Positions 1 through 494 of a stretch of DNA of 494 nt are shown piece after piece. This DNA is from Escherichia coli. Its GTDB lineage: Bacteria > Pseudomonadota > Gammaproteobacteria > Enterobacterales > Enterobacteriaceae. The notes under the pieces are model-generated. The model searched no databases. It was given only the letters and a program-made list of their open reading frames with translations, and was not told the origin of the DNA. Made by a program: the position numbers and the translations under genes. Each line of letters opens with the position of its first letter. Position 1 is the stretch's first letter. Location: the NCBI RefSeq assembly GCF_003334385.1, contig NZ_QOWN01000174.1; one strand, written 5' to 3'.

Positions 1-494
1 TTTGCAGGTGTACGATAAGACCAGGCGGCTTCGTAAAGCAGACGTCTCAGTTCGCTGTTTCCAACTTTTGTTATTCCCCTGGGACGAATGCTGTTTCCAC
101 TGGAATATTCCCCTGGAACCAGTCCCAGAAAAGCCATGAGTTGTTTGGGACTGGAAAATCGTGAAAAATCACCCAGTTCAGCAACCAGGGTTATTGCGGT
201 TAGCTGACCAACACCTTTAAGGGCCTGTAACTGGCAGACCAGATTGCACAGAGACCACTCAGGTAACAGGCGGGATATTTCCTGGTCGAGTTGAAGTATG
301 CGATCTTCAATCTGCTCCAGACTCTGACAATAGTGTTGAAAAGCAATCTGTTGAGATGGCTGACTAAATGATTGATTGGCTAACCAGGTTCGATGTTTGC
401 CGGTCCAGTGCTTCCCTGCATAACGTTTGTCTGTTCGCAATAGCATGCTCAGAATTCGCTGTCGGGCAACTCTGCTGTCTCGTTTAGCTGCTGC
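1..494 (-). CDS. IS110-family transposase (DEDD-type recombinase), internal fragment; N-terminus lies beyond position 494 and C-terminus beyond position 1
   Basis: Hand translation of the reverse complement starting at position 494 gives 164 sense codons with no stop (codons occupy 494 down to 3; positions 2-1 start the next codon). Family motifs recalled from memory are present: helix-hairpin-helix-like LKGVGQLTAITLVAELGDFSRF (approx 156-221), FLGLVPGEYSSGNSIRPRGITKVGNSELRRLLYEAAW (approx 21-131) with the conserved Ser-Gly (second Ser of YSSG, codon at 99-101), and a heptad-like linker SLEQIEDRILQLDQEISRLL (approx 261-320). All three plus-strand frames contain stops (for example frame 1 TAA at 16-18, frame 2 TGA at 137-139, frame 3 TGA at 162-164). 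No database search was run. Confidence 0.9.
1..494 (-). mobile_element. Internal portion of an IS110-family insertion sequence; element ends and insertion site not in window
   Basis: Inferred from the transposase CDS: IS110-family elements are small and consist mostly of the single recombinase gene. No element boundary, target site or flanking host sequence is visible, so the extent and intactness of the element cannot be assessed. Confidence 0.75.

Follow-up and report, generated by a model that had tools for sequence, protein, structure and literature searches.

The locus considered here raises a simple question: does a perfect 9-bp inverted repeat inside the coding sequence of a bacterial transposase gene act as an element of the mRNA or the DNA, or is it a by-product of the protein that is encoded? 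The repeat lies in a 494-nt stretch of Escherichia coli DNA (referred to as the window), which was analysed over its whole length. A first, sequence-only reading of the window had offered two options, namely coincidence, or a local fold of the mRNA with an effect on translation or stability. The former stands: the repeat is very probably a non-functional coincidence of protein coding plus one lineage-specific base change. The latter fails, both in the homologues and in folding energies that are corrected for the choice of site. The repeat does not count as a real regulatory or structural feature, and the gene that carries it is an already known insertion sequence (IS) transposase gene. We infer that the repeat has no effect in vivo.

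The host gene was assigned to the IS110 family by the sequence-only reading, correctly so. The window is 100% identical to an annotated 'IS110-like element ISEc45 family transposase' (WP_000555380.1) found on many E. coli chromosomes. The full gene in strain NCTC86 (locus L001, positions 2087-3220) comprises 377 codons, and the full-length protein of this locus scores 279.9 bits against the NCBIfam model NF033542 ('IS110 family RNA-guided transposase'; cut-off 140). The window itself covers the Pfam Transposase_20 ('Tnp') domain (PF02371), which precomputed annotation of a 99%-identical protein (P0002) combines with an N-terminal DEDD RuvC-like domain (PF01548) that lies outside the window. 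The hairpin sits inside the Tnp domain, in a region that aligns with the corresponding domain of IS621 (structure 8wt6). In this alignment, S270-G271 fall on S241-G242 of IS621 (YSSG / YESG), of which S241 is the catalytic serine (PMC11208158), and the peptide encoded by the hairpin aligns to IS621 AHARQFAAFAGLT, directly N-terminal to the catalytic S241 loop. Residues S269, S270, and G271 are invariant among 32 homologues. Compared with the ISEc45 transposase genes on E. coli and Klebsiella chromosomes and plasmids, the window shows no gene-level difference; it represents a minority ISEc45 sub-lineage that carries Ser253 (AGU) instead of Asn (AAU). A search of the literature for 'ISEc45' returned mentions in genome surveys only, with no description of structure or regulation.

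On the plus strand, CCAGTCCCA (119-127) is the exact reverse complement of TGGGACTGG (146-154), the two being separated by an 18-nt spacer. The repeat sequence, coordinates, and spacer length given in the earlier reading match the letters of the window exactly, and translation agrees with the peptide it had listed for these codons, SSPKQLMAFLGLV. In the mRNA, the repeat spans CDS nt 755-790, corresponding to codons S252-V264 (TCC AGT CCC AAA CAA CTC ATG GCT TTT CTG GGA CTG GTT), and 6 of the 9 pairs in the resulting stem are G-C. A repeat search extends the arms to 14 nt (119-132 / 141-154) at 86% complementarity, with the extra pairs remaining unused in the RNAfold fold. Two further repeats are found nearby: a 14-nt direct repeat (+ 72-85 / + 106-119; TATTCCCCTGGGAC / TATTCCCCTGGAAC), read in two codon phases (..RPRGIT.. 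and ..VPGEY..), and, adjoining it, a 17-nt near-palindrome (+ 91-122) that forms a second small hairpin beside the studied one in the MFE fold. The coordinates of the main features are collected in Table 1.

Table 1. Features of the window and of the surrounding ISEc45 locus. Positions are plus-strand positions of the window unless a locus is named; L001 is the ISEc45 locus of strain NCTC86.
Feature	Position	Strand	Details
ISEc45 IS110-family transposase gene, internal fragment	1..494	-	Codons 139-302 of 377; frame open throughout
Pfam Transposase_20 (PF02371), 'Tnp' domain	18..230	-	E = 4e-24; window residues 89-159
S270 codon AGU, aligned to catalytic S241 of IS621	99..101	-	Five codons 3′ of hairpin
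Hairpin 3′ arm (mRNA), UGGGACUGG	119..127	-	L261 (UG), G262 (GGA), L263 (CUG), V264 (G)
Hairpin loop, 18 nt, AACAACUCAUGGCUUUUC	128..145	-	Codons K255-L261
Hairpin 5′ arm (mRNA), CCAGUCCCA	146..154	-	S252 (CC), S253 (AGU), P254 (CCC), K255 (A)
G of AGU (Ser253), fourth base of 5′ arm	151..151	-	A (AAU, Asn) is the family consensus
Open -1 frame, probably chance	~ + 176 to past + 1 (CDS nt ~735-1055 in L001)	-	107 codons
IS66 fragment regions around ISEc45	L001:1841-2038 and 3460-3949		Also L002-L006; L092, L096-L100

How often would such a repeat arise by chance? When perfect inverted repeats of at least 9 bp with a loop of 3-30 nt are counted, dinucleotide shuffling of the window yields at least one in 4.9% of cases (mean count 0.064), in line with the earlier estimate of about 0.05 per window. 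In synonymous-codon shuffles, which keep both the protein and its codon usage, at least one is present in 8.5% (mean count 0.138). The repeat is real and mildly unusual for one window, being expected about once per 12-20 windows of this size.

Among the functional readings, the one that survives best is that of a lineage-specific stem-loop in the ISEc45 mRNA, which would slow ribosomes or alter decay just before the catalytic-serine loop, thereby tuning transposase output. We consider this reading unlikely. In its favor, the stem is predicted to form with a base-pair probability of 0.80-0.89 when the full-length mRNA is folded, and its stability at the chosen site is considerable: the 36-nt hairpin has a folding energy of -14.2 kcal/mol versus -5.8 ± 3.0 kcal/mol for synonymous shuffles (z = -2.9; reached by 0.7% of shuffles), and its 78-nt context -24.5 kcal/mol versus -16.9 ± 3.4 kcal/mol (z = -2.2). 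The local z-score of -2.9 in L001 is accompanied by values of about -2.3 to -2.7 in variants at 96% identity and of -1.8 in the nearest relative (L091). These chosen-site z-scores are post hoc and overstate significance, because the site was picked for carrying the repeat. Over larger segments, the fold is unremarkable against dinucleotide shuffles, both for positions 100-175 (-21.6 kcal/mol; z = -1.18) and for the whole window (-142.5 kcal/mol; z = -0.54). When the choice of site is corrected for by taking the best 40-nt fold anywhere in the window, the value of -14.9 kcal/mol compares with -14.7 ± 2.5 kcal/mol for synonymous shuffles, 41% of which are as good or better. The comparison with codon-preserving controls that the sequence-only reading had proposed is therefore positive at the chosen site and negative once the site is corrected for. 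By this measure, the hairpin is simply the best local fold to be expected when 494 nt encode this protein, and serves as a worked example of how choosing the site beforehand makes a z-score look more significant than it is.

If the stem-loop were functional, its pairing would be expected to leave a trace in homologues, which is where the earlier reading had suggested looking for compensatory changes. For this, 101 loci were collected, of which 10 came from E. coli, Klebsiella, and Enterobacter records, 80 from species-representative genomes, and 11 from encoding contigs of intermediate relatives. The region could be aligned without gaps for 86 distinct 56-nt sequences, covering 46-100% protein identity. 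At the register of the repeat, 58.3% of cells hold standard pairs. Only pairs 3 (A-U, 87%), 6 (C-G, 94%), and 7 (C-G, 100%) are kept well, and these three are the ones that conserved amino acids fix. Pairs 1, 4, 5, and 9 (4 of the 9) are unpaired in 63-72% of the 86 sequences, and an RNAalifold consensus of the same sequences contains zero pairs at this register, so that neither conserved pairing nor a consensus structure is found. Compensatory covariation likewise does not rise above the controls in these sequences: the covariation score of 0.107 is barely higher than that of slid registers (0.031-0.101), and 4 pairs show double changes versus 4.7 in shuffles. The column-shuffle control is exceeded (0/500 for percentage paired, 2/500 for covariation), but this is a control that sequence relatedness alone passes without any structure, as the tool itself warns.

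Relatives at different distances give a similar picture. Across the 84 segments below 90% amino-acid identity (of 88 distinct 135-nt segments), 5.14 pairs are observed versus 4.81 expected under the synonymous null, and z(MFE) averages -0.07 over 36 nt and -0.14 over 78 nt, with a standard deviation of about 1.2. Relatives at 64-86% identity retain 4-8 of the 9 pairs, slightly over expectation, which speaks for the stem-loop. Ten of them, at 64-75% amino-acid identity, have 6.1 pairs versus 5.3 under the synonymous null (about 0.8 extra), and some carry double changes that preserve pairs (e.g. in L091, pair 2 from C-G to U-A and pair 5 from U-A to C-G). However, several of these ten are essentially without a hairpin (-1.8 to -4.5 kcal/mol), and their lineages are not independent; we treat the surplus of about 0.8 pairs as residual shared ancestry and composition rather than selection. 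Similarly, the MFE is only -0.9 to -4.5 kcal/mol in L092, L010, L011, L096, L098, L100, and L101 (67-80% identity). Within ISEc45, the variants are 93-97% identical, and the structure they share is inherited and does not constitute independent evidence.

The homologue set is able to reveal real RNA structure, because the 3′ non-coding end of the same elements does show covariation. Here, 14 of the same loci (64-99% protein identity) yield a 20-pair consensus in which 11 pairs have compensated changes, and the alignment (A3) contains highly conserved sequence blocks. In ISEc45 itself, this region (L001:3221-3400) lies just past the transposase stop and outside the window, and folds with a long closing stem (z = -2.4); a search of Rfam 15 gave no match for it. 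In IS110 and IS1111 elements, the bridge RNA is encoded at the left or right end of the element, in non-coding sequence, and is conserved and covarying (bioRxiv 10.1101/2024.01.24.577089). The position of the 3′ structure fits that of the right-end bridge RNA of IS1111-group elements, making it a candidate bridge RNA for this clade. Like bridge RNA (seekRNA), the repeat in the window is an RNA structure that an IS110-family element encodes; unlike bridge RNA, it is located mid-ORF, measures 9 bp, and is neither conserved nor covarying. A bridge RNA identity for the repeat was rejected, as bridge RNAs sit in the non-coding ends.

Where, then, does the complementarity come from? Much of it can be traced to the codons. 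Pro254 (CCN) lies opposite Gly262 (GGN), giving two C-G pairs, and the first base (A) of the Asn/Ser253 codon lies opposite the second base (U) of Leu263, giving an A-U pair. In the 32-protein family alignment, G262 is invariant and P254, L261, and L263 are nearly so. About two thirds of the stem is supplied by the protein sequence alone, because ISEc45 with permuted codons (synonymous shuffling with its own codon usage) still averages 5.87 of 9 pairs at this register. The preferred reading, coincidence, runs as follows. The arms, encoding Ser-Ser-Pro-Lys and Leu-Gly-Leu-Val, lie on either side of a conserved Tnp-domain helix that directly precedes the catalytic-serine loop, and three pairs are provided by conserved residues in almost all family members. 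Further pairs are added by the particular codon choices of ISEc45, and one A-to-G substitution at a variable residue (AAU Asn to AGU Ser), confined to one sub-lineage, removed the last mismatch, making the stem perfect. The stem can form in naked mRNA, at the energy given above; 755 nt into an ORF of 1134 nt, it is distant from the start codon and the ribosome-binding site, and translating ribosomes would be expected to unwind it. The repeat is in this respect a second worked example, showing that apparent hairpins in coding sequences can be seeded by conserved Pro (CCN) and Gly (GGN) codons that lie within a few residues of each other.

Close relatives of the window document the last of these steps. 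Six sampled copies at ~95.5-96.8% nucleotide identity (L002-L004 in E. coli; L008-L009 on Klebsiella plasmids) have CCAAUCCCA as their 5′ arm, in which the G of the fourth pair is an A (AGU Ser to AAU Asn). Their 3′ arm is unchanged, so that the resulting mid-stem A·C mismatch goes uncompensated. This identity band holds 554 E. coli records, while about 131 E. coli records contain an exact match to the 56-nt segment that includes the perfect stem (CCAGUCCCA arm). In L006-L007, which are truncated pseudogene copies (93% class, 635 records), the 5′ arm is CCAAUCCUG and the stem is imperfect. The perfect stem is most simply read as a derived state that goes back to a single A-to-G substitution, non-synonymous and at a variable residue, because Asn is the family consensus at residue 253 in 32 homologues (...FxNPKQLMAYLGL...) and is also the state of nearly all relatives at 67-86% identity.

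For the mRNA stem-loop, this means that the perfecting change is non-synonymous and absent from all sampled copies of the ~96% lineage. Its distance of 755 nt from the start codon makes an effect on initiation impossible, and a 9-bp stem is well within the unwinding capacity of elongating ribosomes. A small effect on translation or decay within the ISEc45 lineage is conceivable. A narrower version confines the function to the perfect-stem sub-lineage: the hairpin would be a weak translational pause or mRNA-stability element just 5′ of the catalytic-serine loop, with the Asn253-to-Ser change favored partly through its effect on the RNA fold, which might for instance damp transposase output or aid co-translational folding of the Tnp domain. 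We regard this version as distinctly unlikely. Even if a functional hairpin were true, it would amount to a small, lineage-specific modulator of one IS transposase, adding no new principle.

Could the repeat instead act at the level of DNA, as a palindrome that binds a protein, extrudes a cruciform, or offers a hairpin target to another mobile element? Within the 5.5-kb locus, the 9-mer and its complement are confined to the two arms, as might suit a dedicated site, and perfect inverted repeats can in principle be extruded; arms of 9 bp with an 18-bp spacer are nevertheless unfavorable for cruciform extrusion. Moreover, the codons fully explain both arms, neither arm sequence is kept in homologues, and the sampled ISEc45 copies at ~96% identity are imperfect. 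Among the sampled copies, none showed an insertion or breakpoint at the repeat; where copies are truncated, their ends fall at query positions 120 and 463, counted in mRNA orientation (plus strand ~375 and 32), away from the repeat. A role as a DNA site is accordingly very unlikely. A dispersed repeat or REP-like element was also considered and rejected, given that the 9-mer is unique to the two arms in the 5.5-kb locus.

Another reading takes the hairpin as the downstream stimulator of a programmed -1 frameshift at GAU UUU UCA, resulting in a truncated transposase with an alternative C-terminus. It resembles the frameshift hairpins of the IS1 and IS3 families and of dnaX in having a stem-loop at the canonical spacing of 7 nt past a U-rich run (U UUU UCA) and an open -1 frame. 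In the lineage of the window, this frame is open for 107 codons starting from exactly the U-run, and an off-frame open stretch of that length is found in only 1.75% of synonymous shuffles. Unlike these systems, the repeat lacks a canonical heptamer: no X XXY YYZ sequence is present 5-9 nt 5′ of the hairpin, only the 7-nt spacing fits, and on U UUU UCA the A-site tRNA-Ser would be unable to re-pair on UUC. The U-run is not kept in more distant relatives (GAC UUC), and a conserved -1 ORF downstream of the hairpin is absent among ISEc45 variants and the 64-86% relatives, the frame closing after 15 codons in the former (96%-identical variants) and after 0-21 in the latter. The open -1 frame is probably due to chance, because it is closed after 15 codons in 96%-identical copies. 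We know of no description of frameshifting in the IS110 family. With a non-canonical heptamer and a -1 ORF that is absent in 96%-identical copies, a -1 frameshift signal was rejected as extremely unlikely.

An intrinsic terminator or attenuator within the gene, on either strand, is exceedingly improbable as well: like a Rho-independent terminator, the repeat has a G+C-rich stem, but its loop is 18 nt, it lies inside an ORF, it is followed not by a U-tract but by UUCCAGG (mRNA strand) or AAAAUCG (plus strand), and a terminator and promoter scan of the window made no call on it. The window does contain one terminator-like site elsewhere inside the ORF (+ 189-172, minus strand), with a 7-pair stem, a 4-nt loop, and a UGAUUUUUCA tail; by consensus scan, 1 such site versus 0.5 expected is at chance level. 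No credible match emerged when the window was scanned against Rfam at E ≤ 10. The only family overlapping the repeat was isrF (E = 1.9; 9.4 bits versus a gathering score of 40), and the other matches in the window were to eukaryotic or archaeal families, which we consider noise. The repeat is removed as a candidate, and neither a regulatory RNA nor a frameshift signal nor a DNA site should be read into it.

The survey of ISEc45 copies also yielded two observations on the element itself. In ~635 E. coli records, ST131 strains among them, all that is left of the gene is a 343-nt remnant at 93% identity, truncated and frameshifted, which corresponds to window positions 120-463 in mRNA orientation (e.g. 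L007:801-1143). In L007, this remnant occupies a fixed-looking locus beside a fragment of an L-lactate permease gene. Furthermore, fragments of IS66-family transposase genes adjoin ISEc45 copies in E. coli as well as relatives at 64-80% protein identity, the latter from metagenomes and other genomes, and lie on the opposite strand. At the E. coli loci and in L092, DDE_Tnp_IS66_C is found upstream and DDE_Tnp_IS66 downstream, while in L096-L100 only the downstream part is visible. This suggests a clade-wide target site inside the IS66-family gene tnpC.
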